From Escherichia coli (lineage in GTDB: Bacteria; Pseudomonadota; Gammaproteobacteria; Enterobacterales; Enterobacteriaceae), in the NCBI RefSeq assembly GCF_044324875.1, contig NZ_CP172185.1: DNA of 64,000 nucleotides. The stretch is one strand, 5' to 3'. The notes beneath the pieces are model-generated. The model did no database searches and was not told the origin of the DNA. It was given only the letters and a program-made list of their open reading frames with translations. Positions 683 through 22,085 of the stretch are shown here, piece after piece; positions within the stretch are counted from its first letter, which is position 1; each line of letters opens with the position of its first letter. A program made the position numbers and the translations under genes.

Positions 683-1426
683 ATGACAGAGACAGAATCA
701 GCGATTCTGGCGCACGCCCGGCGATGTGCGCCAGCGGAGTCGTGCGGCTTCGTGGTGAGAACGCCGGAGGGGGAAAGATATTTTCCCTGCGTGAATATCT
801 CCGGTGAGCCGGAGGATTATTTCCGGATGGCTCCGGAGGACTGGCTGCGGGCAGAAATGCAGGGTGAGATTGTGGCGCTGGTCCACAGCCACCCCGGTGG
901 TCTGCCCTGGCTGAGTGAGGCCGACCGGCGGCTGCAGGTGCAGAGTGATTTGCCGTGGTGGCTGGTTTGCCGGGGGACGATTCATAAGTTCCGCTGTGTG
1001 CCGCATCTCACCGGGCGGCGTTTTGAGCACGGGGTGACGGACTGTTACACGCTGTTCCGCGATGCCTATCATCTTGCAGGTATCGATTTGCCGGATTTTT
1101 ACCGACATGATGACTGGTGGAAATCAGGTCAGAATCTCTATCTTGACAATATGGAGGCGACTGGTTTTTACCGTGTCGCACTGACAGAGGCGCAGCCCGG
1201 CGACGTGCTGCTGTGCTGTTTTGGTTCATCGGTGCCGAATCATGCCGCCATTTACTGCGGCGACGGCGGGCTGCTGCACCATATTCCTGAACAACTGAGC
1301 AAACGAGAGAGGTATACCGACAAATGGCAGCGACGCACACACTCCCTCTGGCGTCACCGGGCATGGCACGCATCTGCCTTTACGGGGATTTGCAACGATT
1401 TGGCCGCCGCATCGACCTTCGTGTGA
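683..1426 (+). CDS. Phage tail assembly protein K (NlpC/P60 plus JAB/MPN metalloprotease-like)
   Basis: MTETESAILAHARRCAPAESCGFVV...; HSHP JAMM-like motif (EIVALVHSHPGGLPWLSEADRRL); position between L and I. Confidence 0.85.
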   Translation: MTETESAILAHARRCAPAESCGFVVRTPEGERYFPCVNISGEPEDYFRMAPEDWLRAEMQGEIVALVHSHPGGLPWLSEADRRLQVQSDLPWWLVCRGTIHKFRCVPHLTGRRFEHGVTDCYTLFRDAYHLAGIDLPDFYRHDDWWKSGQNLYLDNMEATGFYRVALTEAQPGDVLLCCFGSSVPNHAAIYCGDGGLLHHIPEQLSKRERYTDKWQRRTHSLWRHRAWHASAFTGICNDLAAASTFV

Positions 1427-1971
1427 AAACGGGAGCCGAAGCCATCCGGGCGCTGGCCACGCAGCTCCCTGCGTTTCGTCAGAAACTGAGCGACGGCTGG
1501 TATCAGGTGCGTATTGCCGGGCGTGATACAGGCGAAAACGAATTATCAGCCCGTCTTAATGAACCGCTGGCAAATGGTGCCGTGATCCACATCGTGCCGC
1601 GTCTGGCGGGAGCCAAACGTGGTGGTGTGTTTCAGGCAGTGCTGGGCGCGGCGCTGATTGCGGTGGCATGGTGGAACCCTGCAGGCTGGCTGGGGGCTGC
1701 GGCTTTATCGGGCATGTATGCGGCAGGGGCCAGTATGGTGCTCGGTGGTGTGGCGCAGATGCTGGCACCGAAAGCCAGAATGCCCGGAGTATCAGCCACG
1801 GATAACGGCAAACAGAACACCTATTTCTCCTCACTGGATAACATGGTTGCCCAGGGGAATGCTCTGCCCGTTCTGTACGGTGAAATGCGCGTGGGGTCAC
1901 GGGTAATTTCGCAGGAGATCAGCACAGCGGATGAGGGGGATGGCGTCCGGGTTGTGGTGATTGGTCGCTGA
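1324..1971 (+). CDS. Phage tail assembly protein I (lambda gpI-like)
   Basis: MAATHTLPLASPGMARICLYGDLQRFGRRIDLRVKTGAEAIRALATQLPAFRQKLSDGWYQVRIAGRD... matches lambda I; overlaps the K 3' end as in lambda. Confidence 0.85.
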   Translation: MAATHTLPLASPGMARICLYGDLQRFGRRIDLRVKTGAEAIRALATQLPAFRQKLSDGWYQVRIAGRDTGENELSARLNEPLANGAVIHIVPRLAGAKRGGVFQAVLGAALIAVAWWNPAGWLGAAALSGMYAAGASMVLGGVAQMLAPKARMPGVSATDNGKQNTYFSSLDNMVAQGNALPVLYGEMRVGSRVISQEISTADEGDGVRVVVIGR

Positions 1972-3659
1972 TGAAAAACGTTTTATGTGAAACCGCCTCC
2001 GGGCGGTTTTGTCGTTTATGGAGCGTGAGGAATGGGTAAAGGCAGCAGTAAGGGGCATACCCCGCGCGAAGCGAAGGACAACCTGAAGTCCACGCAGTTG
2101 CTGAGTGTGATCGATGTCATCAGCGAAGGGCCGATACAAGGACCGGTGGATGGATTAAAAAGCGTGCTGCTGAACGGTACGCCGGTGCTGGACAGTGAGG
2201 GGAATACCAATATATCCGGCGTCACGGTGGTATTCCGGGCCGGTGAGCAGGAGCAGACGCCGCCGGAGGGATTTGAATCCTCCGGCTCCGAGACGGTGCT
2301 GGGTACGGAAGTGAAGTACGACACGCCGATTACCCGGACCATCACGTCGGCAAACATCGACCGTCTGCGCCTGACCTTCGGTGTGCAGGCACTGGTGGAA
2401 ACCACCTCAAAGGGGGACCGGAATCCGTCGGAAGTCCGCCTGCTGGTTCAGATACAGCGTAACGGTCGCTGGTTAACGGAAAAAGACATCACCATTAAGG
2501 GCAAAACCACCTCGCAGTATCTGGCCTCGGTGGTGGTGGGTAACCTGCCGCCGCGCCCGTTCAGTATCCGGATGCGCAGGATGACGCCGGACAGCACCAC
2601 AGACCAGCTGCAGAACAAAACGCTCTGGTCGTCATACACCGAAATCATCGATGTGAAACAGTGCTACCCGAACACGGCACTGGTCGGTGTGCAGGTGGAT
2701 TCGGAGCAGTTCGGCAGCCAGCAGGTGAGCCGTAATTATCATCTTCGCGGGCGCATTCTGCAGGTGCCGTCGAACTATAACCCGCAGACGCGGCAATACA
2801 GCGGTATCTGGGACGGAACGTTTAAACCGGCATACAGCAACAACCCGGCCTGGTGTCTGTGGGATATGCTGACCCATCCGCGCTACGGCATGGGGAAACG
2901 TGTTGGCGCAGCGGATGTGGATAAATGGGCGCTGTATGTCATCGGCCAGTACTGCGACCAGTCAGTGCCGGACGGCTCTGGTGGCACGGAGCCGCGCATC
3001 ACCTGTAATGCCTGGCTGACCACACAGCGTAAGGCGTGGGATGTGCTCAGTGATTTCTGCTCGGCGATGCGCTGTATGCCGGTATGGAACGGGCAGACGC
3101 TGACGTTCGTGCAGGACCGACCGTCGGATAAGGTGTGGACCTATAACCGCAGTAATGTGGTGATGCCGGATGATGGCGCGCCGTTCCGCTACAGCTTCAG
3201 CGCCCTGAAGGACCGCCATAATGCCGTTGAGGTGAACTGGAGTGACCCGGATAACGGCCAGGAGACGGCGACAGAGCTTGTGGAGGACACGCAGGCCATT
3301 GCCCGTTACGGTCGTAACGTCACGAAGATGGATGCCTTTGGCTGTACCAGCCGGGGGCAGGCACACCGCGCCGGGCTGTGGCTGATTAAAACAGAACTGC
3401 TGGAGACGCAGACCGTGGATTTCAGCGTGGGTGCTGAAGGGCTTCGCCATGTACCGGTGCAAAATGGCATCTGAATCGATCGCAGTTTGGCATTCGAATC
3501 GATCATGATTTGGCATCCATCTCCGATCACAGTTTGGCATCACAATCGATCACGATTTGGCATGCTTCCGATCATTGATTGGCATCCTGCCAGTCACTCC
3601 GGGAATTAACTCTTTTCACCACAGTCTCCATTGCCGTGTTTAAACCAGTGGAGACGTCA

Positions 3660-5225
3660 ATGTCCAGAAAGAGAAAATCCAGGAGCACTATGGAAACCTG
3701 TTTTAAGATCCTTCAGCTCAAGTTCGACAAGAAGCTGACTAACCGTTGTATCGGACTGACGTTACACATCAGCGCCTCAACCGTTTTTGAGGTTCTTGCC
3801 CGCTTCAAAGCCTCTTCTCTGTCATGGCCATTACCTGCTGATATATCCCATGACACGCTGGAGAAACTCATTTTTCCGCCCAAAGACACCTTTGCATCAG
3901 AGCTTGTAATGCCTGACATGTTGTACTTCGATACGGAAATGAGAAAACCAGGTGTGACGCGGCAACTGTTGTGGATGGAATACAAGGCACAGGCGGGTAA
4001 CAAAGCGATGGGATACTCGCACTTCTGCCGTTGCTACCGGGAGTGGAAAAAAACGCGACGTCTCTCCATGCGCCAGGAGCATCGTGCCGGCGAAAAGCTT
4101 TTTATCGACTTCTGTGGTCCTACGGTTCCTGTTATTAATCCGGACACCGGTGAGATACGCCGCGTGGCAATCTTCGTGGCCGTAATGGGGGCGTCCAACT
4201 ATACCTACGTTGAAGCGTGCGAAGGTCAGGACATGATGTCATGGTTAAATGCCCACAGCCGTTGCCTGACCTTCCTGGGCGGCGTACCGAAGCTGCTCAT
4301 CCCCGATAACCTCAGAAGCGCAGTGAAAAAGGCCGATCGATATGAGCCTGTCATCAACGACAGTTATCAGGCACTGGCTGAGCACTATGGCACGGTTATC
4401 ATCCCGGCCCGACCACGCAAACCTAAAGATAAACCAAAAGCAGAAAACGGCGTCCTCATCGTTGAACGATGGCTTCTTGCCCGCATCCGTAATGAAACCT
4501 TCCACACGCTCAGGGCGCTGAATGCGCGCCTTAGGGAGTTACTGACAGACATGAATAACCGGCCAATGAAGGGGTACGGCAATCAAACCCGTGCAGAACG
4601 CTTCCGCATACTGGATGCGCCAGCACTCTCTCCGCTGCCTCTGGCACCTTATGAATACACGGAATACAAAGCTGTGAAGGTTGGCCCTGACTACCACGTT
4701 GAATATGCCCGTCACTGGTACTCCGTTCCACACGAACTGGTCGGTCAGCGTCTGTCACTGAAGGCGGGGCAGTCGGTGGTACAGCTCTGGCACAAGGGGC
4801 AGTGTGTGGCGCAACATCCGCGCAGCACACATGAATATAAACACACAACCAATCCGCTTCACATGCCAGAGCGCCACCGGCAGCACGGGACATGGACACC
4901 GGAACGCCTGATCGAGCAGGGAAAACGTACGGGCCCGTCCACAGGCCGGGTGGTTGAATCCATGCTGAAGGCAAAACCCCATCCGGAACTGGCTTATCGT
5001 GCAGTTCTGGGGCTGCTGGCACTTCAGAAAAAATACGGCCCGGAACGGCTGGAAAAGGCCTGTTACGTTGCCCTGCACTATAACGCCCCTGACAGACGCT
5101 TTATCGACAATCTGCTGCGTCACCATCGGGAGAACCTGGAGCTTCCATTATCCCGCCAGGGCGAACAACATCCGGCATATGCTTCAGAGCATGAAAACCT
5201 GCGTGGTCCGGGCTACTACCACTGA
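3660..5225 (+). CDS. istA: IS21-family transposase IstA
   Basis: About 520 aa with N-terminal HTH region (...LSWPLPADISHDTLEKL...) and an IstA-like central/C-terminal region; start chosen at ATG 3660, upstream alternative start possible. Confidence 0.75.
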   Translation: MSRKRKSRSTMETCFKILQLKFDKKLTNRCIGLTLHISASTVFEVLARFKASSLSWPLPADISHDTLEKLIFPPKDTFASELVMPDMLYFDTEMRKPGVTRQLLWMEYKAQAGNKAMGYSHFCRCYREWKKTRRLSMRQEHRAGEKLFIDFCGPTVPVINPDTGEIRRVAIFVAVMGASNYTYVEACEGQDMMSWLNAHSRCLTFLGGVPKLLIPDNLRSAVKKADRYEPVINDSYQALAEHYGTVIIPARPRKPKDKPKAENGVLIVERWLLARIRNETFHTLRALNARLRELLTDMNNRPMKGYGNQTRAERFRILDAPALSPLPLAPYEYTEYKAVKVGPDYHVEYARHWYSVPHELVGQRLSLKAGQSVVQLWHKGQCVAQHPRSTHEYKHTTNPLHMPERHRQHGTWTPERLIEQGKRTGPSTGRVVESMLKAKPHPELAYRAVLGLLALQKKYGPERLEKACYVALHYNAPDRRFIDNLLRHHRENLELPLSRQGEQHPAYASEHENLRGPGYYH

Positions 5226-5241
5226 CAGAAGGAACAACAGT

Positions 5242-5997
5242 ATGAGTGATAACCTGTTAAACAAACTGACCCAACTGAAACTCCCGGCGATGGCCGGGAG
5301 CCTGATACGGCAGCGGGAAACGCCTCAGACCTACGACGAACTGTCGTTCGAGGAAAGGCTGACGCTGCTGGTTGATGACGAGCTTCTGAGCAGGGAAAAC
5401 AGCCGTGTGGCACGGTTGAGAAAAAATGCCGGCCTGAAATACCAGGCAACACCGGAAGGGCTGCGCTATCCGGCCTCAAGAGGTCTGCGGGCTGAACAGA
5501 TGAGAGAACTGCTGAACGGCCACTACATAACCCACAGGAAAAACCTGCTGATAACCGGTCCGACAGGATGTGGCAAGAGCTGGATAGCCAATGCGCTGGG
5601 CGAACAGGCATGTCGACAGAAACACAGCGTCCGGTACTGTAGAACCGGGCGATTACTGGAACAACTGGCTCAGGGACGTGTTGATGGCAGCTGGCTGAAA
5701 TATCTGAAACAGTTGCAAAAAATACAGGTTCTAATCCTGGACGATCTGGGGCTGGAACAGTTAAGTAACGCCCAGTGTAATGACCTTCTGGAGCTCATAG
5801 AGGATCGTTACGGACAAAGCAGCACGATAGTGGTAAGCCAGTTCCCGGTAGATAAATGGCATGGTCTGATGGAGAACCCAACAACAGCAGATGCCATCCT
5901 GGACAGACTGGTACATAACTCACACCGAGTGGTCCTTCAGGGAGAGTCACTGAGGAAAAATCCCCCGGTAGTGGAAAGCAGCGAAAAAACGCGTTAA
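5242..5997 (+). CDS. istB: IS21-family helper ATPase IstB
   Basis: 251 aa; Walker A GPTGCGKSWIANALG; Walker B LILDDLG; typical IstB size and position after istA. Confidence 0.85.
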   Translation: MSDNLLNKLTQLKLPAMAGSLIRQRETPQTYDELSFEERLTLLVDDELLSRENSRVARLRKNAGLKYQATPEGLRYPASRGLRAEQMRELLNGHYITHRKNLLITGPTGCGKSWIANALGEQACRQKHSVRYCRTGRLLEQLAQGRVDGSWLKYLKQLQKIQVLILDDLGLEQLSNAQCNDLLELIEDRYGQSSTIVVSQFPVDKWHGLMENPTTADAILDRLVHNSHRVVLQGESLRKNPPVVESSEKTR

Positions 5998-8218
5998 AAA
6001 GCGGTAGAAAAAGTTAAGTTCCCGGTTGATCGAATGGATGCGAATCGCTGATCGGACTTCGATGCCAATCCGTGATCGAATAGAGCGGAATACGCATACC
6101 GGGCGATGTCATTGAAATCTGTGATGATGACTATGCCGGTATCAGCACCGGTGGTCGTGTGCTGGCGGTGAACAGCCAGACCCGGACGCTGACGCTCGAC
6201 CGTGAAATCACGCTGCCATCCTCCGGTACCACGCTGATAAGCCTGGTTGACGGAAGTGGCAATCCGGTCAGCGTGGAGGTTCAGTCCGTCACCGACGGCG
6301 TGAAGGTAAAAGTGAGCCGGGTTCCTGACGGCGTTGCCGAGTACAGCGTGTGGGGGCTGAAGCTGCCGACGCTGCGCCAGCGCCTGTTCCGCTGCGTGAG
6401 TATCCGTGAGAACGACGACGGCACGTATGCCATCACTGCCGTGCAGCATGTACCGGAAAAAGAGGGCATCGTGGATAACGGGGCACACTTTGACGGTGAC
6501 CAGAGCGGCACGGTGAATGGTGTCACGCCGCCAGCAGTGCAGCACCTGACTGTCGAAGTCACCGCAGACAGCGGGGAGTATCAGGTACTGGCCCGCTGGG
6601 ACACGCCGAAGGTGGTGAAAGGCGTGAGTTTCATGCTTCGCCTGACCGTGGCAGCGGATGACGGCAGTGAGCGGCTGGTCAGCACGGCCCGGACGACGGA
6701 AACCACATACCGCTTCAGGCAGCTGGCGCCGGGGAACTACAGGCTGACAGTCCGGGCAGTAAATGCCCGGGGGCAGCAGGGAGACCCGGCGTCGGTATCG
6801 TTCCGGATTGCCGCACCGGCAGCGCCGTCGCGGATTGAGCTGACGCCGGGCTATTTTCAGATAACCGCCACGCCGCATCTTGCCGTTTATGATCCGACGG
6901 TGCAGTTTGAGTTCTGGTTCTCGGAAAAGCGGATTACCGATATCAGGCAGGTTGAAACCACAGCCCGTTATCTTGGTACCGGAAGTCAGTGGCTTGTCTC
7001 CGGCCAGAATATTAAACCTGGCCATGATTATTACTTTTATATCCGCAGTGTTAACACTGTCGGTAAATCGGCATTCGTGGAGGCAGTCGGTCGGGCGAGT
7101 AATGATCCTGCCGGTTACCTTAATTTTTTCAGGGGGGCGATAAATAAAACGCATCTGGGACGGGAGATCAATGAACGCATTGATGCCTCTGCACGGCGCA
7201 CTGAAGTTGAGCAACTGGAGAATGCGATTAACCGCGAAATGACGCAGCTGGAGAATGCGATTAACCGCGAAATGACGCAGCTGGAGAAAGATGTGAGGCA
7301 GCGTGCGGAGCGTGATATCGCAGAGGTGACGAAAAAAATCACGGCGTCTGAAAACAGCATAACGGAACTGGTGGCGAAAAAGAGCGGTGAACAGTCGCTG
7401 GCCATTGCGAAAGTCGACAGGAAAGTTGACAGCGTGAGCAGTGAAATCCGGCAGACAGTAAGCAGGAGCACGGAGGAGAACAGCCGACAGATAGCGCAGG
7501 TCAGGCAGTATGTTGATGATAAAAGTGCGCAAATAAGTACTGTTGTGGCGAAAAAGAGCGGTGAACAGTCAATGGCCATTGCGGAAGTTGACAGAAAAGT
7601 TGACAGGATGGGCAGCGAAATCCGGCAGACAGTAAGCAGGAGCACGGAGGAGAACAGCCGACAGATAGCGCAGATCAGACAGTATGTTGATGATAAGGGA
7701 AGTCAGATCAAACAGAGCACGGATAAAAAACTGGGATCCTGGAATGCCAGCATTGAGCAGATACAGAAAGTTCAGGAGGACACGCGCCGGAACCTGAACA
7801 GCATGTGGGCTGTGAAGCTGCAGCAGACACGGGATGGACGTCTCTATATTGCAGGTATTGGTGCCGGAATCGAAAATACGTCTGACGGAATTCAGAGTCA
7901 GATCCTGATGCAGGCAGATCGTATTGCGATGATTAACCCGGAAAATGGCAATACAACACCTTTGTTTGTGGCTCAGGGTGATCAGCTGTTCATGAATGAT
8001 GTTTTCATGAAAAAACTGACCGTGGATTTTGCCAGAGTGACGGGAGATATCCGGTCAGATAATTTTCATTCCGGTAGTCCGGGGTGGCGTTTATCAAGAA
8101 ACGGCAGCCTTGAAATTAACTCAGGAAGGCCCGGCGCAGGCCGCCTGTTTTTCAATGGCGAGCGAATCGACGTATATGACGATAACAATGTGTTAAGAGT
8201 ACGACTGGGGAGACTGTA

Positions 8219-8479
8219 ATGTTCGGAGTCCGGGTATGGCGCAAAGGGCGCCTTGTGACACATGAAATAAACCCAACAGGGGTGCTGGATGTGATCACTG
8301 AAGGGACGGGGCAGCGTTCTTATACTCCTTTGCAGGGCTGGCGTCTGGAAGTCTGTTCACCGGCCATTCTGATTAACGGTCAGGGAAGTCATACCAGTGC
8401 CAGTGTATCCGGCTGGACAGTGCACTATGCCAACACAAGCTGGCTAAGACCCGTGCTGGTCATGATAAGGGGGATCTGA
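8219..8479 (+). CDS. Hypothetical phage protein, translationally coupled to J (TAATG overlap)
   Basis: 86-aa ORF starting on the J stop codon; no motif I can recognise. Confidence 0.4.
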   Translation: MFGVRVWRKGRLVTHEINPTGVLDVITEGTGQRSYTPLQGWRLEVCSPAILINGQGSHTSASVSGWTVHYANTSWLRPVLVMIRGI

Positions 8480-9141
8480 TGTTTGCACTTAAATTAACTG
8501 ATGAGCGGGGGAGAGAATGGATATCACCTGTTGCGCCGCCACTGAACCTTGTGCGCCGTTTTCATTTCACACTGAGTGCGCGTGATGCGGTGATGCAGTT
8601 TATCGACACCGGGGTGCCGACGAATTATCGTTGCGTGATTTTTATTAAACAGATAAGCGGTAATCAGTCCTTCCATGGTGAAATGGTTCAGCTTAACGGT
8701 ACCTGGCAGTATGACATTTTCAGCGCTGGTACAGGGCAGGAGCCGGGCATGGAACAGGACAGCACATATGTTGTTTATGTTTTTGCCAACATGGTGAATG
8801 TATGGCCGCAATGGGGAATACAGTTGTGCGACAGTCATGGCAGGGTGGTCTGGAACACGGAAATGCTGCCACTGGAAGTAAAAATGACGCGAATATGGGA
8901 AAAGGATGTACCGATCAGTGTGGGACATGATGTGGCCGTAATGCCGGGGTGTACCCAGTGGACGACAGTTCAGGAAGGGGAGAGTTATTACTGGTATACC
9001 GCCAGTTTTAATGCCAGAAACTCACAGTTATGGCGTCAGTCAACTTTTGCTGAAGATAACGTAGCGGCGCCCAATGATAATTCAGGTGTTGTTAATAACC
9101 TCTGTTATTACATAAATGCAGAAATTTATGATGCGTACTGA
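8479..9141 (+). CDS. Hypothetical phage protein (tail-associated or moron), coupled by TGATG overlap
   Basis: 220-aa ORF, Trp/Tyr-rich, no recognisable catalytic motif; sits between J and the side tail fiber. Confidence 0.45.
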   Translation: MFALKLTDERGREWISPVAPPLNLVRRFHFTLSARDAVMQFIDTGVPTNYRCVIFIKQISGNQSFHGEMVQLNGTWQYDIFSAGTGQEPGMEQDSTYVVYVFANMVNVWPQWGIQLCDSHGRVVWNTEMLPLEVKMTRIWEKDVPISVGHDVAVMPGCTQWTTVQEGESYYWYTASFNARNSQLWRQSTFAEDNVAAPNDNSGVVNNLCYYINAEIYDAY

Positions 9142-9162
9142 TAGTTATGTTGAGGGCATGTA

Positions 9163-9408
9163 ATGAAAATAATCGTCTGCACTTTTTTGCTGTTTCTTGT
9201 ATCAGGTTGCGCGGGGTACCGTTCCGTTACGGAGAGAGTCCGGTGCACCGGTGTGCTGAGTCCCGGGGTTTTACAGCGAGCTTATACGGTAGATCTTACA
9301 GGGAAAATAGAAACGAAAAGCGGCACTGTGTATAAAGTATCAGCTCCGAGATTTTATGGTCAGTGGGTGAGTGAAGATATGTTTACGAAAGTTTCGTGCG
9401 TGAAGTAA
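9163..9408 (+). CDS. Small phage lipoprotein, candidate Cor-like superinfection-exclusion protein
   Basis: 81 aa; signal peptide with lipobox MKIIVCTFLLFLVSGC; lies where lom/cor-type genes sit in lambdoid phages. Function is inferred. Confidence 0.5.
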   Translation: MKIIVCTFLLFLVSGCAGYRSVTERVRCTGVLSPGVLQRAYTVDLTGKIETKSGTVYKVSAPRFYGQWVSEDMFTKVSCVK

Positions 9409-9483
9409 TCATAAAAACACCCGATTGTAAATGAATGACGACGCCCGCAATTTTGCGGGATTATTTTTATTTGTGGAGCGAGT

Positions 9484-10812
9484 ATGGCGGCTGTAAAAAT
9501 TTCAGGCGTGCTCAGGGACGGAACCGGAAAACCGGTACCGGGATGCATTATTGAGCTGAAAGCGAAGAGAACCAGCGAGACAGTCATCGCCACGACAGTG
9601 GCTTATGGCATGCCGGAAGAGACGGGGAGTTACAGTATGGATGTGGAGCCAGGAATATACAGGGTGACACTCAATACAGAAGGTTACCGTCCTTCGTATG
9701 TGGGAGATATCGTGGTCAGGGAGGATTCTTCACCGGGAACACTGAATAAATTTCTGATGGAGATGGAAGATGCTCCTTATTATCCGAAGGCGTTGTCAGA
9801 GCTGGAGGCTGTGGTGCAGTCCATACTGCACAGAGCAGAGTCCGCGGCATCTGAGGCGGAGGAAGCCCGGAAGCGAGCAGCATCTGCCCGGGGACCACGA
9901 GGAGAGAAAGGGGATACCGGCGCTCGTGGTGAAAGAGGCATTACCGGGCCACAGGGGCCAAAAGGTGAAACAGGAGCACGTGGCCCGGCAGGACCACAGG
10001 GACCAAAAGGTGAAACAGGTGAACGCGGTCCGGCAGGTCCACAGGGACCAAAGGGCGATACAGGTGAACGCGGCCCGGCAGGTCCACAGGGACCAAAAGG
10101 TGAAACAGGTGCACGTGGTCCGGAAGGTCCACAGGGAGCAAAAGGTGAAACAGGTGAACGCGGCCCGGCAGGTCCACAGGGAGCAAAGGGCGAAACAGGT
10201 GCACGTGGTCCGGAAGGCCCTCAGGGTCTGAAGGGAGAAAAGGGTGAGCGAGGAGAAAAAGGCCCTAAGGGGGATAAAGGAGATCCGGGAGGTCCACAGG
10301 GACCAAAAGGTGAAACAGGTGAACGTGGCCCGGCAGGTCCACAGGGACCAAAAGGTGAAACAGGTGAACGTGGCCCGGCAGGTCCACAGGGACCAAAGGG
10401 CGATACAGGTGAACGCGGTCCGGCAGGTCCACAGGGGCCAAGAGGGTATACAGGTGAACGCGGGCCGACAGGTCTACAGGGGCCAAGAGGGTATACAGGT
10501 GAACGCGGGCCGGCAGGTCCACAGGGGCCAAGAGGAGAAGCGGGGCGGCCAGCGAGCGTCGGAAGTGTTTATTCCGTGGGGTCTTATGTTCTGGGGATCA
10601 TAGAACGAAATCATGAGATAACAAATACCCGTCAAATACCCGGGTATCGTATCAGACAGGCCGTTATTGTGTCGTCGTCATCGGATAAACTTACAGATAT
10701 CCGCTTTTTATTTGGCAATCCTATGCTTGGTACATGGATGTTATGCACAACTAACATGGCGGTGAATAATATCAGTGGGACGATTTGGGGCCTGTTTCAG
10801 AGAATACTGTGA
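9484..10812 (+). CDS. Prophage side tail fiber protein with collagen-like Gly-X-Y repeat region
   Basis: N-terminus [29 protein letters not shown]... resembles the Stf N-terminal domain of E. coli prophages; about 220 aa of GxY triplets ([19 protein letters not shown]...). Confidence 0.8.
9886..10548 (+). repeat. Tandem, roughly 45-bp coding repeats (collagen-like Gly-X-Y) inside the tail fiber gene
   Basis: Repeated [15 protein letters not shown] units at nucleotide level; the ORFs in other frames and on the opposite strand over this stretch are repeat artefacts. Confidence 0.8.
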
Positions 10813-11002
10813 CAGGGGGAGAAATGAATGAAGGTCGATAAAATCACGTCACCAGTGTGGGCTGACAGGGGTCATACGACCATAAACTGTATAGTGAAGT
10901 TTTCAGACGCGGAAACAGAATGTGTATTTACAGCAAGTGCGGATGATCCGTAACCGGCTCATTTAAACCGTCTGGTCTGTTTCCTCCGGCTCTACAAAAA
11001 TA

Positions 11003-11680
11003 ATGTCCATCATTTTTAATGGACACTATCGTATGAAACACCGGACCTGGATCACTGAAGCTTTACGTCTTCACTTTGAAGAACATTTACCCCGGGTTGT
11101 GGCCGGGCGTCGCCTGGGTGTACCAAAATCAACAGTTTGTAGTATGTTCGTGCGCTTTCGGAGAGCTGGCCTTTCGTGGCCTTTGCCCGCAGGCATGTCG
11201 GAGCAGGAACTTGATGCCTGCCTTTACGGACAATTTTCCACGGTACCAGTCGTACGTCCTGAAAGCACCGTTATATCCGAAGCCCCCGTGGTAAAAAAAC
11301 GTCCCCGGCGGCCCAACTTCCCTTATGAGTTTAAAATCGCCTTAGTGGAGCAGTCACTGCAGCCCGGAGCCTGTGTGGCGCAGATCGCCCGGGAAAACGG
11401 AATCAACGATAACCTGCTCTTCAACTGGCGCCATCAATACCGGAAAGGTGGCCTGCTGCCTTCCGGAAAAAATATGCCGGCACTGCTTCCCGTGACGTTA
11501 ACGCCGGAGCCGGATAATAAAATCCCGGCCCCCGCACAGGAACCAGAGCAGATAAATACACCGTCCGACAGTCTGTGTTGTGAGCTGGTTCTGCCGGCCG
11601 GAACTCTCAGGCTTAAAGGTAAACTGACGCCGGCGTTATTACAGACACTTATCCGCGAAATAAAAGGGAGCAGCCACTGA
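11003..11680 (+). CDS. tnpA: IS66-family accessory protein (orfA/TnpA) with N-terminal HTH extension
   Basis: C-terminal part ...PNFPYEFKIALVEQSLQPGACVAQIARENGINDNLLFNWRHQYRKG is IS66 orfA-like; N-terminal part carries an LSWPLPA HTH-like motif. Start codon uncertain. Confidence 0.7.
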   Translation: MSIIFNGHYRMKHRTWITEALRLHFEEHLPRVVAGRRLGVPKSTVCSMFVRFRRAGLSWPLPAGMSEQELDACLYGQFSTVPVVRPESTVISEAPVVKKRPRRPNFPYEFKIALVEQSLQPGACVAQIARENGINDNLLFNWRHQYRKGGLLPSGKNMPALLPVTLTPEPDNKIPAPAQEPEQINTPSDSLCCELVLPAGTLRLKGKLTPALLQTLIREIKGSSH

Positions 11681-12027
11681 TGATATCTCTCCCTGCAGGT
11701 TCGCGTATCTGGCTGGTTGCAGGTATCACCGATATGCGAAATGGCTTTAACGGCCTGGCATCAAAAGTTCAGAACGTCCTGAAGGATGACCCGTTCTCCG
11801 GACACCTGTTCATCTTCCGCGGACGCCGGGGTGACCAGATAAAAGTGTTGTGGGCTGACAGTGACGGACTGTGCCTCTTCACCAAACGCCTGGAGCGGGG
11901 CCGCTTCGTCTGGCCAGTCACCCGTGACGGCAAGGTGCACCTTACTCCGGCTCAGTTATCCATGCTTCTTGAAGGTATCAACTGGAAGCACCCGAAACGA
12001 ACGGAACGCGCTGGAATCCGCATATAA
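11680..12027 (+). CDS. tnpB: IS66-family TnpB (Orf2)
   Basis: 115 aa MISLPAGSRIWLVAGITDMRNGFNGLASKVQNVL...; overlapping start with orfA stop. Confidence 0.85.
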   Translation: MISLPAGSRIWLVAGITDMRNGFNGLASKVQNVLKDDPFSGHLFIFRGRRGDQIKVLWADSDGLCLFTKRLERGRFVWPVTRDGKVHLTPAQLSMLLEGINWKHPKRTERAGIRI

Positions 12028-12046
12028 CCCGTTGTAAAGTGAGGAT

Positions 12047-13618
12047 ATGGACACCTCACTTGCTCATGAGAACGCCCGCCTGCGGGCACTGTTGCAGACG
12101 CAACAGGACACCATCCGCCAGATGGCTGAATACAACCGCCTGCTCTCACAGCGGGTGGCGGCTTATGCTTCCGAAATCAACCGGCTGAAGGCGCTGGTTG
12201 CGAAACTGCAACGTATGCAGTTCGGTAAAAGCTCAGAAAAACTTCGTGCAAAAACCGAACGGCAGATACAGGAAGCACAGGAGCGAATCAGCGCACTTCA
12301 GGAAGAAATGGCGGAAACGCTGGGTGAGCAATATGACCCGGTACTGCCATCCGCCCTGCGCCAGTCTTCAGCCCGTAAACCGTTACCGGCCTCACTTCCC
12401 CGTGAAACCCGGGTTATCCGGCCGGAAGAGGAATGCTGTCCTGCCTGTGGTGGTGAACTCAGTTCTCTGGGATGTGATGTGTCAGAGCAACTGGAGCTTA
12501 TCAGCAGCGCCTTTAAGGTTATCGAAACACAACGTCCGAAACAGGCCTGTTGCCGGTGCGACCATATCGTGCAGGCACCAGTACCTTCAAAACCCATTGC
12601 ACGCAGTTATGCCGGAGCGGGGCTTCTGGCCCATGTTGTCACCGGGAAATATGCAGACCATCTGCCGTTATACCGCCAGTCAGAAATATACCGTCGTCAG
12701 GGAGTGGAGCTGAGCCGTGCCACACTGGGGCGCTGGACAGGTGCTGTTGCTGAACTGCTGGAGCCGCTGTATGACGTCCTGCGCCAGTATGTGCTGATGC
12801 CCGGTAAAGTCCATGCTGATGATATCCCCGTCCCGGTCCAGGAGCCGGGCAGCGGTAAAACCCGGACAGCCCGGCTGTGGGTCTACGTCCGTGATGACCG
12901 TAACGCCGGTTCACAGATGCCCCCGGCGGTCTGGTTCGCGTACAGTCCGGACCGGAAAGGTATCCATCCACAAAATCACCTGGCCGGTTACAGCGGTGTG
13001 CTTCAGGCCGATGCTTACGGTGGTTACCGGGCGTTATACGAATCCGGCAGAATAACGGAAGCCGCGTGTATGGCTCATGCCCGGAGAAAAATCCACGATG
13101 TGCATGCAAGAGCGCCCACCTACATCACCACGGAAGCCCTGCAGCGTATCGGTGAACTGTATGCCATCGAGGCAGAGGTCCGGGGCTGTTCAGCAGAACA
13201 GCGTCTGGCGGCAAGAAAAGCCAGAGCCGCGCCACTGATGCAGTCACTGTATGACTGGATACAGCAACAGATGAAAACACTGTCGCGTCACTCAGATACG
13301 GCAAAAGCGTTCGCATACCTGCTGAAACAGTGGGATGCACTGAACGTGTACTGCAGTAATGGCTGGGTGGAAATCGACAACAACATCGCAGAGAACGCCT
13401 TACGGGGAGTGGCCGTAGGCCGGAAAAACTGGATGTTCGCGGGTTCCGACAGCGGTGGTGAACATGCGGCGGTGTTGTACTCGCTGATCGGCACATGCCG
13501 TCTGAACAATGTGGAGCCAGAAAAGTGGCTGCGTTACGTCATTGAACATATCCAGGACTGGCCGGCAAACCGGGTACGCGATCTGTTGCCCTGGAAAGTT
13601 GATCTGAGCTCTCAGTAA
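12047..13618 (+). CDS. tnpC: IS66-family transposase TnpC
   Basis: 523 aa; N-terminal coiled coil, Cys cluster CCPACGGEL...CCRCDH, DDE-type catalytic region. Confidence 0.85.
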
Positions 13619-14475
13619 ATATCAATACGGTTCTGACGAGTCGCTTACGATGATCCTGAGTCTTACGGTCGTGAAATATTTGAAGCCTGCATAAGAGGTG
13701 ATGCAGGGCCGGTAGGTGAGTACCGGGCAAATGATGATATGGCTGTGGAAGAAGCACGCAGGATGAAAAACGCGGAGATAAATGCCTGGCGTGATGCGAT
13801 GGAGGCGTCAGGGTATGTTTTTGAGCACAGAGGACGGAAATGGGATTATGGAAAGGAAACCATGACACGTCTTGGAATGTCGGCATCAGCGGCCAGAGGC
13901 GGTGTGTTGCCGGAAGGATTTTTCTGGACGGACGCAGAGAATAATGATGTACCGATGACGGCAGATGAACTGATATCCCTGAGTGATGCTGCTGGTAAAG
14001 CGATGTTCAGGAAAGGCCTTGAAATACATATAAGGCAAAGGGAGATGAAAAAGGCAATAGCAGAACTGAGTGACAGTGAAACCATTCTGGCGTACAGGGT
14101 TGGATGGTGAAACTGATAAAAAAACCCCTCTGAAAATTCTGTCAGAGGGGGGCAAGGATCTATATTTATTATGCGGTAATGCTTTCACTCCGGTAATTAA
14201 TTTCAGTGATTAACTGCTTTCGATCAATAAAGGAATTGCAAAAAGGTGATCTTGTTCACGACATTGTGGATGATAATATGCCTGATGTCTGAATCCGGAA
14301 ACAGTGATCTGGCGGGTTTCATGTGAAGTTGACGGATAAAAAATCCGCACGACCAGACAGACGTGCGGTTTACGAAATTCGTAACAAGAGGCTTTTCTAG
14401 GGATCACGTGGTGCGTGCCACGTGAAATTTTTGTAGCGCAAAATGTGTAATGTGTAAATACAAGGAAGGAAAAAG

Positions 14476-14805
14476 TTAAATCGGTGGAAGTCCATACCGG
14501 GAACGTGCACGGTTACATGCTTCGTTTTCAATACCATTTTCACCAGACATGGCAAATTCCCGGCACGTTGATGAACGGTTTTCGTAGATGGTACAGCTCG
14601 CTTCTTTACCTGGTGTTCCTGCAAGGGCAATACATCTGGGGTTTTTCTGGTTTGTACCGATCATGCATCGGTGCAAAGGCGATACTTGTTCAGTAAGTCT
14701 GGCTGGAATGGTGCCGCCAGCATCGTCGGCTTCGGCCCAGTAAAAAGAGACGCGGAAAAATGCACAACAGGCACCACACGTTATGCATGGATTTGGATTG
14801 CTCAT
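14476..14805 (-). CDS. Small Cys-cluster protein (CxxCxxCC, YkgJ/UPF0153-like putative zinc or iron chelating domain) at the prophage edge
   Basis: 109 aa [28 protein letters not shown]...; motif C-x2-C-x2-C-C plus further conserved Cys. Confidence 0.5.
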
Positions 14806-15166
14806 AATTCACCACAGCTATAAATTATAAAGAAAACCGCAGCATGTCGTATGCAAGAACGTGCTGCAGCTGGCTGGTTAACTTTCGATAGTGCGAGTAT
14901 TGAATGATTTCCAGCCGTTACCGATTTTATATAACTGCAGTGGAATTATTCAACACAGGCAAAACGGAATAAGCTGAGAAAAAAGCGTACTTTCCCAATC
15001 TGGGGCAAATCACGTCTGAATGACACCTGACAACAGATGGTGGCCTCAAGAAGGCTTGGAATATTCTTCTTTAATGTTATGTAAATTATTGATTTTTCGT
15101 GTACGATTTTAAGACATTTATTCCAAGAAAAATTTTTAACTCTTTGATTTTTCGACTCTGTATCAT

Positions 15167-15228
15167 CGGTCTCGAAAACCGGAGTAGGGGCAACTCTACC
15201 GGGGGTTCAAATCCCCCTCTCTCCGCCA
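15167..15228 (+). other. Prophage attachment site (attR): 62-nt 3' fragment of the tRNA-Ser (CGA, serU-type) gene without the 5' half
   Basis: CGGTCTCGAAAACCGGAGTAGGGGCAACTCTACCGGGGGTTCAAATCCCCCTCTCTCCGCCA matches the 3' part of tRNA-Ser from the anticodon stem onward; no complementary GGAGAGA acceptor strand upstream. Confidence 0.75.
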
Positions 15229-15895
15229 CTTTATCAATGACTTATCTCCCGACTTCCCGCCTTGCTTTTCCTAAACAGAACAATCGTAGAATATTCTTGA
15301 AGGGTTAGATCGTCACTGTTTTCTGTTCGATACTGTGACATTCAGCACTTGATTCGCTATGGATCTGACAGGAAGGTTTCGAGCGAAAATCTGCAATTAT
15401 TCAGTCGTTTTCTTATCGGTCACCATTATTCTTTTAGACATTGATCCTACAAAGCTGCCGCAAAGTTGGTGGTGGGAACTGAAGTTGCGTAGAGAAGTGG
15501 TCAATAATTGAGCAAAAAAAGGAACGCGGCCGTCAGATTAAAGCCGCGGGACAAAGTCCATAATTTCCAAGAGTTGTTGAATTTCCCAGCTTTTTTGAAA
15601 GCCTTCGTATCATACTAACAAGTAAAAAAGGTTTAAATACCAAAATTAACCTATATTTCTGGTTAGCTTTACCATGACAGATGACTTGCTCCTGGAGACA
15701 TTGGCGCAGCCAGTCTGTATTGGTGAGTTGTGTATTTATTGTTCGCCGTTTTCTCAGTTTTTTCTACAGACATAATAAAAAAGACACGTCTCAAGCATGA
15801 GCGTGTCTGAGTTTGTCTTATTTATTTGTCTTGGTAAATTATTGTCGTTACTACCAGGCACTGTTCTGTTAAATAATTGAATCAGCGAAAAAAAA

Positions 15896-16546
15896 TCAAT
15901 GAGACATCATTTCCTCGACCACTTCTTCGCTACTCAACTGATAGGGATAATACGTTGGCCAGTTTTCCATTTCATTTAATAAAGATTGCTGTGAATCATT
16001 ACCCATAAAAATGTGAAAATGAGATGATTTTCGTGGTGCAATTATATGATCGCTAAATTGAATATATTTAGGGGCTTTGCTTTCAGGATCTTTACATTCG
16101 AATAAATAACGAACGCCTTTCTTACCTGATTTATAGGTGAGTATTTTGTATCCATCGTAATCATATTTACAGGATGTTGTTTCATTATTTCTATGGAATT
16201 CAACAATGCCGTCCTCAATGCCAATCATCTCGATATCTGTCACATAACCTTTGCGATAATAATCTTTAATTTCAGCAAATGTTTTGGTTTTATCTGCATC
16301 CGCTTTCTTCTGAAAGACGGGGTCAAGTTTGCCACTTTGCAGTAAAGGATAAACGGATTGCCATACTCCATCCCAGTCACTTAGCGTTCGGTTTTGTACA
16401 TTGGCATCATCAAAAACACCATTAGCAGCTTTTTGTTCGACCTCTGTTAAGGGTTTGCCGTGTGAGTGATGACCATGCGAAAAGGCAGGAGCGCTAACAA
16501 TAAAGACACCTAAAGCAACAGCCAGTTTATGAAGACGAATCGCCAA
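15896..16546 (-). CDS. zinT: Zinc/cadmium-binding periplasmic protein ZinT
   Basis: 216 aa; signal peptide then His-rich HGHHSHG; matches ZinT (YodA). Confidence 0.95.
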
Positions 16547-16582
16547 AACAGTTTCCTCCAGAGTTAATGTATATAATGTGTA

Positions 16583-16605
16583 ATGTTATATTGTAACATA
16601 TAACA
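16583..16605 (-). promoter_or_regulatory. Putative Zur box in the zinT promoter
   Basis: AT-rich palindrome-like ATGTTATATTGTAACATAT just upstream of zinT; zinT is known to be Zur-regulated. Confidence 0.4.
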
Positions 16606-16734
16606 AAATGCAACAACTCTTAGGAAACGAGTGCAAAGTTACCTCAGGTATATTTTCCTATCTTATTGAAATGACATAAATTATGTCGATGATTTGAGGT
16701 TGATGACAAACGAAACATAACCTGATGTGATCTG

Positions 16735-16775
16735 CGTAGGCCGGATAGGGCGCTCGCGCCGCATCCGGCAGGGAT
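16735..16775. repeat. REP-type palindromic element between zinT and msrQ
   Basis: GTAGGCCGGATAGGGCGCTCGCGCCGCATCCGGCA, a typical GCCGGATG...CATCCGGC REP palindrome. Confidence 0.5.
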
Positions 16776-16802
16776 AACGCGTACTTTGTCGGTAATATGA
16801 AG

Positions 16803-17438
16803 TTATAGAGATAATTTGTTGTGAACCTGCTTGCGTAACCGGTTGAAAAGGGAAAGCAACTTCTTATACCGTAAGGCTAAAAGCAGTACCGCCAGCCCAG
16901 CGTAGATGAGTGGCTGCGGTGAAATAATCTTCACTGACCACAGATAATGTATTGGGGCCAGGATCGCGACAAGATAGACGAAATTATGCAACTGTTGCCA
17001 GTGCTTGCCGAGTTTTCGCTGCATCGCCTGGGTTGAAGTAAACGCTAAAGCAAGCAAAATAACCCAGCTGATAATTCCTAACGTTAAATAAGGCCGGGTA
17101 ATTAACTCCTTACCTAATAACGCCAGATTATTCACGCCCAGCTCCAGTAATGCGTAACTGGTTAAATGCAGTGTCGCCCAGGCAAAGCACCATAAGCCTA
17201 ACAGGCGGCGAGTGCGTATCAATAACGGCTGTTTTGCGTAGCGTGCCAGAGGTGTGATTAACAAGGTCGCCAGCAAAAATTTCAGTGCAGTGCGACCAGT
17301 AAAATGCTGAATATCTTTCACTGGATCGGCACCCAGTCCACCGTGATTGATCGCCCAGACCAGCCAGAGAAACGGCAACAATCCGGCAAGATGCAGGCAA
17401 ACTTTCATCCATGTCACCTGTTTTGCTGTCAGACGCAT
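16803..17438 (-). CDS. msrQ: Methionine sulfoxide reductase haem-binding subunit MsrQ (YedZ)
   Basis: 211 aa multi-pass membrane protein; position downstream of msrP. Confidence 0.95.
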
Positions 17439-18449
<1,011 letters not shown>

Positions 18450-18551
18450 TCACACTTTTTTGTCGTTAGCCAGCAAGAGCCGTTTACTGTTAATCTGTCA
18501 GGGAGTGTCCTCCCTAACAGTAGCAGAGATCTGCTTTTACATATTTATGCA

Positions 18552-18965
18552 TTAACTGCCACGATAGGTTGAATACCCATATTGGCTAAGTAATAAAGGC
18601 ACATGATAATGCTCGTTCACTTTATTAATATGAAATTCAACGGGGATCTCAGGGAAGAAACTTTCAAGATTTTGTTTCTTGAAATAGTCCCCGGTTTTAA
18701 ATACGACACGGTAATCGCCCGTAGTTGCAGTTTGCTCGGGCCACAGTGCCTTAATTCGTCCATCCTTATCTGTTTTGGCGGTATTAAGTTGTAACCAGCC
18801 GTTGTCCGCTTTCTTTTCAAGAGTGACTGTCACGTCGGCAGCGGGTTTTCCTGTTTGCTGGTTCAAAATGTGCACGCTAAGAATGTTTTGTTGTGCAGCA
18901 TAGACCAAAGAAGGTAATGAAAATGCAGCCGTTACTACGGAGAGTACTAAATAACGCTTTAACAT
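18552..18965 (-). CDS. hiuH: 5-hydroxyisourate hydrolase (transthyretin-like) HiuH (YedX)
   Basis: 137 aa with signal peptide; C-terminal YRGS typical of the HIU hydrolase family. Confidence 0.9.
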
Positions 18966-19097
18966 GTTTATATCCTTGTCATGTGAATGAGTTTTGAGGA
19001 TAGCGAAAAAGCGTCCAGGGTAACCTTACAGCAGCATTACAATTTTGTAATGAACCAGGCTGTTTCTATAACATATGATTTATGGCATATTATTTTC

Positions 19098-19769
19098 ATG
19101 AAGATTTTACTTATTGAAGATAATCAAAGGACCCAGGAGTGGGTAACGCAGGGGCTTTCCGAAGCGGGTTATGTCATTGATGCCGTTTCTGATGGCAGAG
19201 ATGGGCTTTATCTTGCGCTGAAGGATGATTATGCATTGATCATTCTGGATATTATGCTTCCGGGTATGGATGGCTGGCAGATCTTACAAACGTTAAGAAC
19301 AGCAAAGCAAACCCCTGTTATTTGCCTTACTGCAAGGGATTCTGTCGATGACAGAGTCAGAGGGCTGGACAGTGGAGCAAATGATTATCTGGTAAAACCT
19401 TTTTCATTTTCTGAGTTGCTGGCAAGGGTTCGGGCACAATTAAGGCAACATCATGCTTTGAATTCAACATTAGAAATCAGTGGCTTAAGAATGGACTCTG
19501 TTAGTCAAAGTGTGAGCAGGGACAATATCAGTATTACACTGACGCGCAAGGAGTTTCAGTTACTTTGGCTACTGGCCTCCAGAGCTGGCGAAATTATACC
19601 CAGAACGGTTATTGCGAGTGAAATTTGGGGAATCAACTTTGATAGTGATACCAATACGGTGGACGTCGCCATTCGCAGGCTCCGCGCAAAAGTTGATGAT
19701 CCTTTTCCTGAAAAGCTAATCGCCACAATCCGGGGGATGGGCTATTCATTCGTAGCGGTAAAAAAATAA
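19098..19769 (+). CDS. hprR: OmpR-family response regulator HprR (YedW)
   Basis: 223 aa MKILLIEDNQRT...; receiver domain plus winged-helix; start set at MKILLIED rather than the upstream alternative start of the ORF track. Confidence 0.9.
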   Translation: MKILLIEDNQRTQEWVTQGLSEAGYVIDAVSDGRDGLYLALKDDYALIILDIMLPGMDGWQILQTLRTAKQTPVICLTARDSVDDRVRGLDSGANDYLVKPFSFSELLARVRAQLRQHHALNSTLEISGLRMDSVSQSVSRDNISITLTRKEFQLLWLLASRAGEIIPRTVIASEIWGINFDSDTNTVDVAIRRLRAKVDDPFPEKLIATIRGMGYSFVAVKK

Positions 19770-21127: not shown

Positions 21128-21233
21128 CATAGGGCTTCAGTACGCCATAAATTAACCGTGAAAAACGCAGCCACGTCGTGAGTATTAACGTGGCTGCGAT
21201 TGATTATGCGCTTACATTACAATGTAACAGGGA

Positions 21234-22085
21234 TTAACTCGAGTAAGCGGCCAGCATTTCCTGCGCCGCCAGTTTACCCAACGCATTCGCTGCGAAAGGA
21301 CTGTCGCCGGTGAGAACTTTACGGTCCTTATGTACTCGCCCGGTGATGTCGTCATTAATAATGTTCATGCCCATTTTCTTCAGCTCTTCGCCGAAGTACC
21401 AGGTGAGATGACCCGGCATATAGCCTATCTCTGGCGTTTGTTTGTCTGCGGCGTCTGGGAATGCGCAAATGGAATAACCATTCAGTGGGTTATCGCCGTG
21501 GCGAAGTGCCAGAAAAGCCGCCGGACCGTGGCAAAGGGATATAACAAAACGGTCATTTTTGATTGCCCACTGTAAAGCGGCAGCCACGTCCTGGCTTTCT
21601 GGTAAACCAATAAGTGCGCCATGACCACCAGGAACAAAGATTGCTGCATATTCGCTGTCAGCGTTGAGGCTGGCGACAACATCCGCGAGTTTATTCGGAT
21701 TGCGGAACAACGATTTATGCTGCTCAAAGAATGGCATTACTTTTTCATCTTTGTGTGGCATAGCCCAGTATTCAAACTTGGTCATCAGACCGGAAATGGT
21801 CGCCACTTCGAATTCGAAACCTGCAGCATGGAGATGATACAACGGCAGCAACGTTTCAATCGGATGGTTACCGGTCGAAAACAGTTTGCCGTTATCGGTC
21901 GGCAAATAACGTTCGTCCGCGGCGATCACCAGAATTTTATGTTTACCACGATAAGGTTTTGGGTAGTCCACGCCATCAAGATCAGAGACAGGACTAGTAT
22001 ATTGGCTAAGCGAATATTCTGAAGGGAAGAATGCATTATCTTCAGCAATATCGACCTGCGGATTTTTACTTGTTTGAACAGTCAT
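21234..22085 (-). CDS. hchA: Glyoxalase III / protein deglycase HchA (Hsp31)
   Basis: 283 aa, DJ-1/PfpI fold; matches HchA. Confidence 0.95.
   Translation of the reverse strand: MTVQTSKNPQVDIAEDNAFFPSEYSLSQYTSPVSDLDGVDYPKPYRGKHKILVIAADERYLPTDNGKLFSTGNHPIETLLPLYHLHAAGFEFEVATISGLMTKFEYWAMPHKDEKVMPFFEQHKSLFRNPNKLADVVASLNADSEYAAIFVPGGHGALIGLPESQDVAAALQWAIKNDRFVISLCHGPAAFLALRHGDNPLNGYSICAFPDAADKQTPEIGYMPGHLTWYFGEELKKMGMNIINDDITGRVHKDRKVLTGDSPFAANALGKLAAQEMLAAYSS

Follow-up and report, generated by a model that had tools for sequence, protein, structure and literature searches.

What kind of protein contains the long run of Gly-X-Y triplets found in a 64,000-nucleotide stretch of Escherichia coli DNA (hereafter the window, meaning the whole stretch analysed), and does the length of that run change between otherwise similar genes? 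A preliminary inspection of the letters alone, here called the sequence-only reading, had pointed to a collagen-like tract in a prophage side tail fibre (Stf). The evidence presented below makes it very probable that the tract is the collagen-like triple-helical shaft of the Stf of a lambdoid prophage, that the protein belongs to the EPclP family with EPclC as its nearest type, and that the shaft changes in length unit by unit. Coordinates of the relevant features are collected in Table 1. The window is part of an E. coli chromosome, as many complete E. coli genomes match positions 16000-24000, in the hchA-hprRS-msrP region, at 100% identity.

Table 1. Features of the stf locus and its surroundings, in window coordinates.
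Feature	Position	Strand	Basis or remarks
gpJ (tail tip protein)	2032..8219	+	split by an IS21-family element at ~3458-6098
Terminator-like hairpin with trailing T-run in the interval from the cor-like lipoprotein gene to stf	9444..9459	+	consensus scan alone; predicted
stf, side tail fibre gene, 442 aa, intact ORF	9484..10812	+	stop codon 10810-10812
N-terminal PfN / Stf collar domain (aa 3-133)	9490..9882	+	PF08400 'prophage tail fibre N-terminal', 137.9 bits (cut-off 26.6)
Collagen block 1, 45 uninterrupted Gly-X-Y triplets (aa 137-271)	9892..10296	+	regular expression on translation; PF01391
45-bp tandem array A, 6.2 copies, 87% matches	9949..10226	+	Tandem Repeats Finder; also scored as a 90-bp period
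Divergent Gly-X-Y linker between arrays A and B, ~58 bp	10227..10284	+	sequence; unchanged in relatives L001-L009
One-residue interruption GDPGGPQG (aa 266-273)	10279..10302	+	extra residue Gln272, codon 10297-10299
45-bp tandem array B, 5.7 copies, 90% matches	10285..10539	+	Tandem Repeats Finder
Collagen block 2, 28 Gly-X-Y triplets (aa 273-356)	10300..10551	+	translation
C-terminal 86-aa beta domain, ending GLFQRIL	10552..10809	+	putative trimerisation/receptor-binding tip
Other-frame long ORF	9770-10231	+	
Other-frame long ORF	10244-10603	+	
Other-frame long ORF	9941-10204	-	
Other-frame long ORF	10265-10531	-	
DUF4376 gene, 5' part, 41 codons, in the tfa position	10828..10949	+	cut by the IS
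ISCro1-like IS66-family element	10950..13648	+	tnpA 11003-11680, tnpB 11680-12027, transposase 12047-13618
DUF4376 gene, 3' part	13657..14110	+	PF14301, E 6e-21

The tract lies in a side tail fibre gene

The product of stf matches phrog_366 ('tail fiber protein') with an E value of 2.6e-103, and a protein search returned thousands of E. coli homologues named 'prophage tail fiber N-terminal domain-containing protein'. A conserved Stf N-terminal domain had been proposed to precede the repeats, and it is confirmed both by the PF08400 match (Table 1) and by the alignment of residues 3-94 (E 4.4e-29) with 9e7m_Ta, the Ur-lambda side fibre collar, whose structure is solved. Upstream of stf lies a lambda-like tail module with genes for minor tail protein L, a K-like JAB/NlpC peptidase, I and the tip protein J; small moron-type genes, among them one for a Cor-like lipoprotein, occupy the interval between J and stf. 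This synteny, together with the Ur-lambda collar match, bears out the earlier assignment to a prophage side tail fibre, and the open reading frame is a prophage side tail fibre gene with a collagen-like shaft. Searches of positions 8000-15900 on both strands gave no match to an Rfam structured RNA.

Comparison with a relative, the stf gene of strain F1022 (locus L001), over positions 9484-10328 showed that 7 of 9 differences fall at third codon positions. Differences from the relatives thus appear mostly synonymous, which supports the view that the reading frame is under selection.

Could the gene instead encode a bacterial cell-surface collagen-like adhesin of the Scl or Lcl kind, unrelated to a phage fibre? 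NCBIfam models for such proteins do give scores over the Gly-X-Y region (SclB, 188.5 bits; Lcl, 164.2 bits; SclA, 133.7 bits), but all fall far short of the curated cut-offs (325, 500 and 400 bits, respectively), and the matches are confined to the repeats. The N-terminus, moreover, is a Stf collar domain with no signal peptide, and stf is situated between gpJ and the putative tail fibre accessory gene of a prophage. An adhesin of either type was rejected, as every NCBIfam score lies below its cut-off, and we regard the probability of this identity as practically nil.

Two 45-bp arrays are separated by a linker and a one-residue break

The tract comprises 220 collagen residues (aa 137-356), in agreement with the earlier estimate of about 220, and the limits first assigned to it, 9886-10548, were correct to a few bases (9892-10551 by our analysis). 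A chance origin is excluded, because blocks 1 and 2 of stf are the only runs of at least seven Gly-X-Y triplets in the six frames of the 64-kb window, and because the tract scores 127.7 bits against the Pfam Collagen family (PF01391, cut-off 27.2). Pro occupies the X position in 34 of the 73 triplets, 28% of residues are charged, and 14 KGE or KGD motifs are present, a composition that appears compatible with a collagen triple helix.

Two elements of the original description require revision. The triplets had been called uninterrupted, but Gln272 moves the Gly register by one residue between a run of 45 triplets and a run of 28. The units had also been called near-identical at 45 bp, which is accurate for the two tandem arrays, whose core units are 78-98% identical to one another in a unit identity matrix, but not for the divergent linker between them or for the ~57 bp of non-repeat Gly-X-Y sequence that precedes array A. 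At offsets of whole multiples of 45 bp, no exact repeat is longer than 63 bp. Long open reading frames in other frames, which had been predicted as spurious by-products of the repeats, do exist over the tract; no Pfam family match was found for any of the four, and this supports their spurious appearance.

A conserved one-residue break in the collagen sequence has been described for the EPclP family (PMC3368898), and the GDPGGPQG of the window fits the published motif exactly. The break is also present, as GDPGGPPG, in ORF-401 of P-EibA and in the viable phage PhiR12_2. Since both of these proteins have it too, the break is, as judged from the aligned sequences, an inherited feature and no sequencing error. 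It is probably a kink or hinge in the predicted triple helix.

The protein is a reduced relative of EPclC

Collagen-like proteins of E. coli prophages, designated EPclA to EPclD, were described in 2012 (Ghosh et al., PLoS One 7:e37872; PMC3368898). EPclA was shown experimentally to form trimers, whose collagen triple helix melts at 42 C, and the length of the collagen (Col) region was found to vary between copies of EPclP proteins; in EPclA copies it ranges from 63 to 144 residues and is mostly 111 (PMC3368898). The window protein is a member of this family and stands closest to the EPclC type, as a reduced variant rather than a canonical EPclC. Like the 479-residue EPclC protein encoded by ORF-401 of P-EibA, it passes directly from PfN to collagen (in the window from residue 137) without the PCoil segment, and it ends in a C-terminal domain of the 'VGSY...GTW...LFQRI' family and not in PfC (PF06820). 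The conserved one-residue break is common to EPclC and the window, and in both loci a DUF4376 gene lies downstream (ORF-191A in P-EibA).

The two proteins differ in the collagen region itself. In EPclC proteins, ORF-401 included, two Col domains are split by a Pf2 (PF03406) repeat region, whereas the window protein has one fused Col of 220 residues, in which neither a match to PF03406 nor an internal non-Gly-X-Y segment of more than one residue was found. Its highly regular 45-bp units are likewise unlike the collagen of ORF-401.

EPclA (for example ECs2717 of O157:H7 Sakai) resembles the window protein in having PfN, a single Col and a small C-terminal domain. EPclA alone, however, has a 116-residue coiled coil (PCoil) after PfN and ahead of Col, and ends in PfC; neither PCoil nor PF06820, which are found in the EPclA and EPclB architectures, was detected in the stf of the window. 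The usual EPclA Col is also only half as long as the one described here.

With the Stf of Ur-lambda the window protein shares a homologous N-terminal collar and the position of its gene after J and the lom region. The collar domain is present in Ur-lambda in twelve copies, which ring the junction of tail tube and tip and bear four trimeric side fibres; these quicken adsorption by binding an outer-membrane receptor (PMC12617516). The shafts are different: that of Ur-lambda consists of alpha-helical coiled coil, is hinged and carries a gp37-like distal domain, whereas that of the window protein is collagen-like. The accessory genes differ as well, being tfa in Ur-lambda and a DUF4376 gene in the window. 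The latter, which is not of the lambda Tfa family, is assumed from its position to be a putative fibre accessory (chaperone) gene. A paper on the lambda interaction map offered no information on a need for Tfa in the assembly of fibres.

When the whole gene was compared with phage genomes by megablast, an IS end was the sole match. A search of phages at the protein level identified the viable PhiR12_x phages, whose EPclC-type fibre has N- and C-terminal domains of the same classes as those of the window protein.

The C-terminal domain has kin among other Stf-type fibres

No Pfam or NCBIfam match was found for the 86-residue domain that follows the collagen, and a word-indexed search with this domain alone returned only near-identical fragments. 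Alignments, with 30 representative clusters, place it in a small family of Stf-type fibre C-termini that share the motifs VGS[YF]...GTW...LFQRI. It aligns end to end with the C-terminus of P-EibA ORF-401 at 27% identity (BLASTP, E 0.001), so that kinship between the two would be weak; part of the case for it comes from a profile search.

An AF2 model of the domain, built from a 15-sequence alignment, has five strands and a pLDDT of 72.7. Foldseek found no match to this model in the PDB below an E value of 0.7, and weak matches in BFVD to phage tail fibre C-termini, the best with an E value of 3e-3. The modelled structure is therefore at most suggestive of a tail fibre tip fold. By its position and by analogy with PfC, the domain may nucleate the trimer and serve as the receptor-binding tip.

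The tract changes in length by whole units

A comparison of repeat numbers with homologous stf genes, as the sequence-only reading had proposed, was carried out on 46 sequences parsed for collagen segments, including nine loci from complete genomes. The closest sub-family has N- and C-terminal domains more than 95% identical to those of the window stf and uses the same 15-residue unit. Its members range from 414 to 616 residues and differ from the window in unit number (for example P0024, 441 aa, found on 124 contigs, and WP_317740968.1, 604 aa); the genes on either side are also shared, with a DNA identity of 99.6-100%.

Across the 46 sequences, collagen segments differ in steps of five triplets, equal to 45 bp or 15 residues. 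Alleles that lack the linker and the break have 19, 24, 29, 34, 39 or 44 triplets in their first collagen segment. In alleles of the window type, with linker and break, the block before the break contains 35, 45 or 55 triplets; the block after the break contains 17, 32, 37 or 47 triplets up to a globular insert that is described below, or 23, 28 or 63 triplets in alleles that have no insert. The last collagen segment across the relatives consists of 10 or 11, 15 or 16, or 20 or 21 triplets.

The flanks of stf are 99.6-100% identical to those of loci L001, L003 and L004 (strains F1022, AR_0085 and TUM1886). On this sequence comparison the window and these three strains represent one prophage lineage with differing tract lengths. 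The proposal that recombination or slippage varies the length of the tract between related prophages is thus supported, as differences of whole 45-bp units are seen between flanks that are nearly or fully identical.

Repeats of this kind raise the question of whether the unit number, or the absence of the insert, might be an assembly artefact produced by collapse or misjoining of near-identical repeats. Short-read assemblies do break in the tract: among the relatives in databases, many are incomplete proteins from contigs of 0.3-2 kb whose ends fall within the collagen repeats. The exact 442-residue protein was not found in a collection of ~15 billion sequences, nor was an identical allele found in any complete E. 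coli genome searched. The open reading frame is nevertheless intact and in frame across 1329 nt, and the longest exact repeat is short. Within the same contiguous window, two multi-copy insertion sequences of 2.6-2.7 kb are also present in full, set in unique sequence, which would be typical of a long-read or finished assembly. Alleles that have no insert but do have the same linker and break occur, within near-identical flanks, in two complete-level genomes, and a collapse would be unlikely to remove a unique segment of ~260 bp cleanly and in frame. We consider an artefact very improbable and take both the unit number and the fused state to be most likely genuine.

The window allele appears to have lost a globular insert

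In most relatives the collagen region is split by a globular insert of ~87 residues (GESARGQLLNGDLNRL...WKELGAQ), which is absent from the window allele. Among 22 complete genomes with this C-terminus, the insert is missing from two, AR_0085 and TUM1886; the short forms P0019, P0034 and P0035 also have none. The AR_0085 allele carries 55 and 63 triplets on either side of the break (118 in all), and the TUM1886 allele, of 457 residues, carries 55 and 23.

The insert had no Pfam or NCBIfam match. NCBI gives the name 'pyocin knob domain-containing protein' to a fragment 72% identical to it, and the knob label is putative. The AF2 model of the insert was poor (pLDDT 58.6), and the fold search run with it gave no meaningful match.

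Two insert-bearing relatives indicate how the window allele may have arisen. Positions 9484-10328 are 98.9% identical to L001, and positions 10447-10812 match the last collagen segment and C-terminus of L013 with one mismatch; by eye, the native match to L013 reaches ~10414 on the upstream side. Deletion of the insert from L013 in silico reproduced the 3' 366 nt of the window stf but not the junction units, and none of the relatives compared was an exact parental allele. The most likely origin is recombination between the arrays that flank the insert, fusing the two collagen segments and removing the insert. Because the 5' part matches L001 and the 3' part matches L013, the crossover would be bracketed within ~10329-10416. 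We infer that the direction was loss of the insert in this allele, the alternative being its gain by the majority.

Insertion sequences disrupt the prophage but leave stf intact

Two genes close to stf are interrupted. In gpJ, both halves retain Pfam J domains, with istA and istB between them, and apart from this insert the gene is collinear with the intact J of F1022. In the DUF4376 gene, the ISCro1-like element, which was named from Pfam matches and from the RefSeq names given to the same element in relatives, is flanked by a perfect 8-bp target duplication, GATGATCC, at 10942-10949 and 13649-13656. The rejoined halves encode a 191-residue protein identical to the intact copy in F1022 (WP_000861763.1). 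Because the duplication is perfect and the two halves, once rejoined, do not differ from intact copies of the gene, the IS66 damage is, to judge from the sequences, recent. Across 10 loci of this prophage lineage, ISCro1 was found in the stf-tfa region at five distinct insertion sites.

With gpJ and the DUF4376 gene each broken by an insertion sequence, the prophage is defective and decaying, and the fibre is probably not deployed from it at present. This raises the possibility that stf is itself a dead relic, an inactive remnant with a functionless and drifting tract. Both insertions, the absence of the globular insert carried by most relatives, and the RefSeq label of pseudogene given to the insert-less AR_0085 allele would fit such a reading. 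The window reading frame is intact, however, with Gly in register over 73 triplets save for the conserved break, and the largely synonymous differences from relatives and the recent date of the IS66 damage also argue against long decay. The AR_0085 'pseudogene' itself reads as a single uninterrupted open reading frame of 577 residues. Three insert-less alleles each have their own unit number, and the fused form therefore persists and keeps varying. Finally, intact fibre genes of defective prophages can be rescued by recombination with lambdoid phages, as discussed in PMC3368898. We consider a dead relic unlikely.

Proposed architecture of the fibre

Taken as a side fibre, the protein would be built as follows. 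Three stf chains would trimerise, with a triple helix extrapolated from EPclA, whose C-terminal domain differs. Their PfN domains (aa 1 to ~134) would attach to the tail just above its tip and form a collar there, as their counterparts do in Ur-lambda. Collagen rises 0.286 nm per residue, and if this value is assumed the 220-residue Gly-X-Y region would extend as a rod of ~63 nm, in which the GDPGGPQG break would be the single flexible point. At the distal end, the C-terminal domain would nucleate folding of the trimer and bind the cell surface.

Unequal recombination or slippage between units would add or remove whole units, each of 45 bp, 15 residues and ~4.3 nm. Rod length would thus differ between near-identical prophages because whole units are gained or lost; with the same rise per residue, rods of the observed alleles would measure between roughly 17 and 101 nm.

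To our knowledge, E. coli has no prolyl hydroxylase. Stability of the rod without hydroxylation could come from Pro at X positions, charged residues and KGE or KGD motifs, in line with the explanation offered for EPclA (PMC3368898).

A further idea is that unit number and insert state allow the reach and flexibility of the side fibre to be tuned quickly in evolution to the thickness of O-antigen or capsule, that the window allele was selected as a long rigid rod and is no accident of deletion, and that the stf-tfa region is a preferred target of ISCro1. We hold this to be improbable.

Relation to earlier work and uses of the locus

The family, its variable collagen length and the conserved break have been known since 2012, and current understanding of them is unchanged. 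What is new is the allele, which combines PfN, a fused Col with the break and an ORF-401-type C-terminus with no internal domain; its insert-less state and the IS-disrupted tail module around it are also new.

The tract is an assembly hazard. Because short-read assemblies break within it and annotation mislabels intact alleles, repeat counts in stf can be trusted from long reads only. Mislabelling arises from automated annotation, the AR_0085 allele being an example.

Even in a defective prophage, the stf allele could still serve as a recombination donor to other lambdoid phages, an idea put forward in PMC3368898. The locus also constitutes a natural series in which one fibre occurs, in a near-identical background, with rods that lengthen or shorten by 15 residues at a time and that may or may not hold an internal globular domain. 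With such a series one could test how the adsorption and host range of lambdoid phages, Shiga-toxin phages with related fibres among them, depend on the length and hinges of the side fibre.

Insertion elements in the tail genes

An ISCro1-like IS66-family element was present in or next to the stf/DUF4376 module in 5 of the 10 related prophage loci examined, at five distinct positions (see table). Two separate sites lie in the interior of the DUF4376 gene, while the others are downstream of that gene, in the intergenic region between a cor-like gene and stf, and within the PfN-coding portion of stf. Because the sequences flanking the element are unlike one another between the loci, the five insertions look independent, and the module may be an insertion hot spot for this element.

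The tail tip gene, gpJ, is split by an IS21-family element (window 3458-6098). On either side of it, positions 2032-3457 and 6099-8219 hold the two parts of J, which are collinear with the unbroken gene in strain F1022; a short target duplication (CCGG/TACCGG) was found at the insertion. Three small genes follow between gpJ and stf.

Annotation and assembly of collagen-tract relatives

The stf gene of E. coli AR_0085 (locus L003 4081-5814, NZ_CP029741.1) is labeled in RefSeq as a pseudogene "missing C-terminus"; its translation is a single unbroken ORF of 577 aa that includes 118 collagen triplets and has its C-terminal domain in full. The annotation pipeline seems to have been defeated by the long repeat. 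Dozens of the database relatives (P0121-P0139) are collagen-like or tail proteins labeled "partial", 60-180 aa long and encoded on 0.3-2 kb contigs. That these contigs end inside the repeats shows that the collagen tract is a routine break point of short-read assemblies.

Prophage right end

The right end of the prophage was placed at window about 15086-15230. Sequence from about 15167 onward is common to nearly all E. coli and coincides with tRNA-Ser in other genomes. ARAGORN found no complete tRNA in the whole window, and attR probably carries a partial tRNA-Ser copy. A YkgJ-family gene and a capsid-gene remnant separate the fibre module from this end.

Features of the fibre region and related loci (window coordinates unless a locus is named)
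Feature	Position	Remarks
ISCro1-like element	10950-13648	
ISCro1-like element	L001, 6741	
ISCro1-like element	L003, about 1300-4000	
ISCro1-like element	L006, 3759	
ISCro1-like element	L009, up to 1559	
istA	3579-5225	in IS21-family element
istB	4999-5997	in IS21-family element
86-aa product gene	within 8219-9408 (gpJ-stf interval)	weak PHROG match "outer membrane protein"
220-aa membrane-associated moron protein gene	within 8219-9408	phrog_425
81-aa Cor-like exclusion lipoprotein gene	within 8219-9408	NCBIfam 28.4 bits, slightly under cut-off of 31
Terminator-like hairpin	9444-9459	after the three small genes, immediately upstream of stf
YkgJ-family CxxCxxCC gene	14476-14805	minus strand
Capsid-gene remnant
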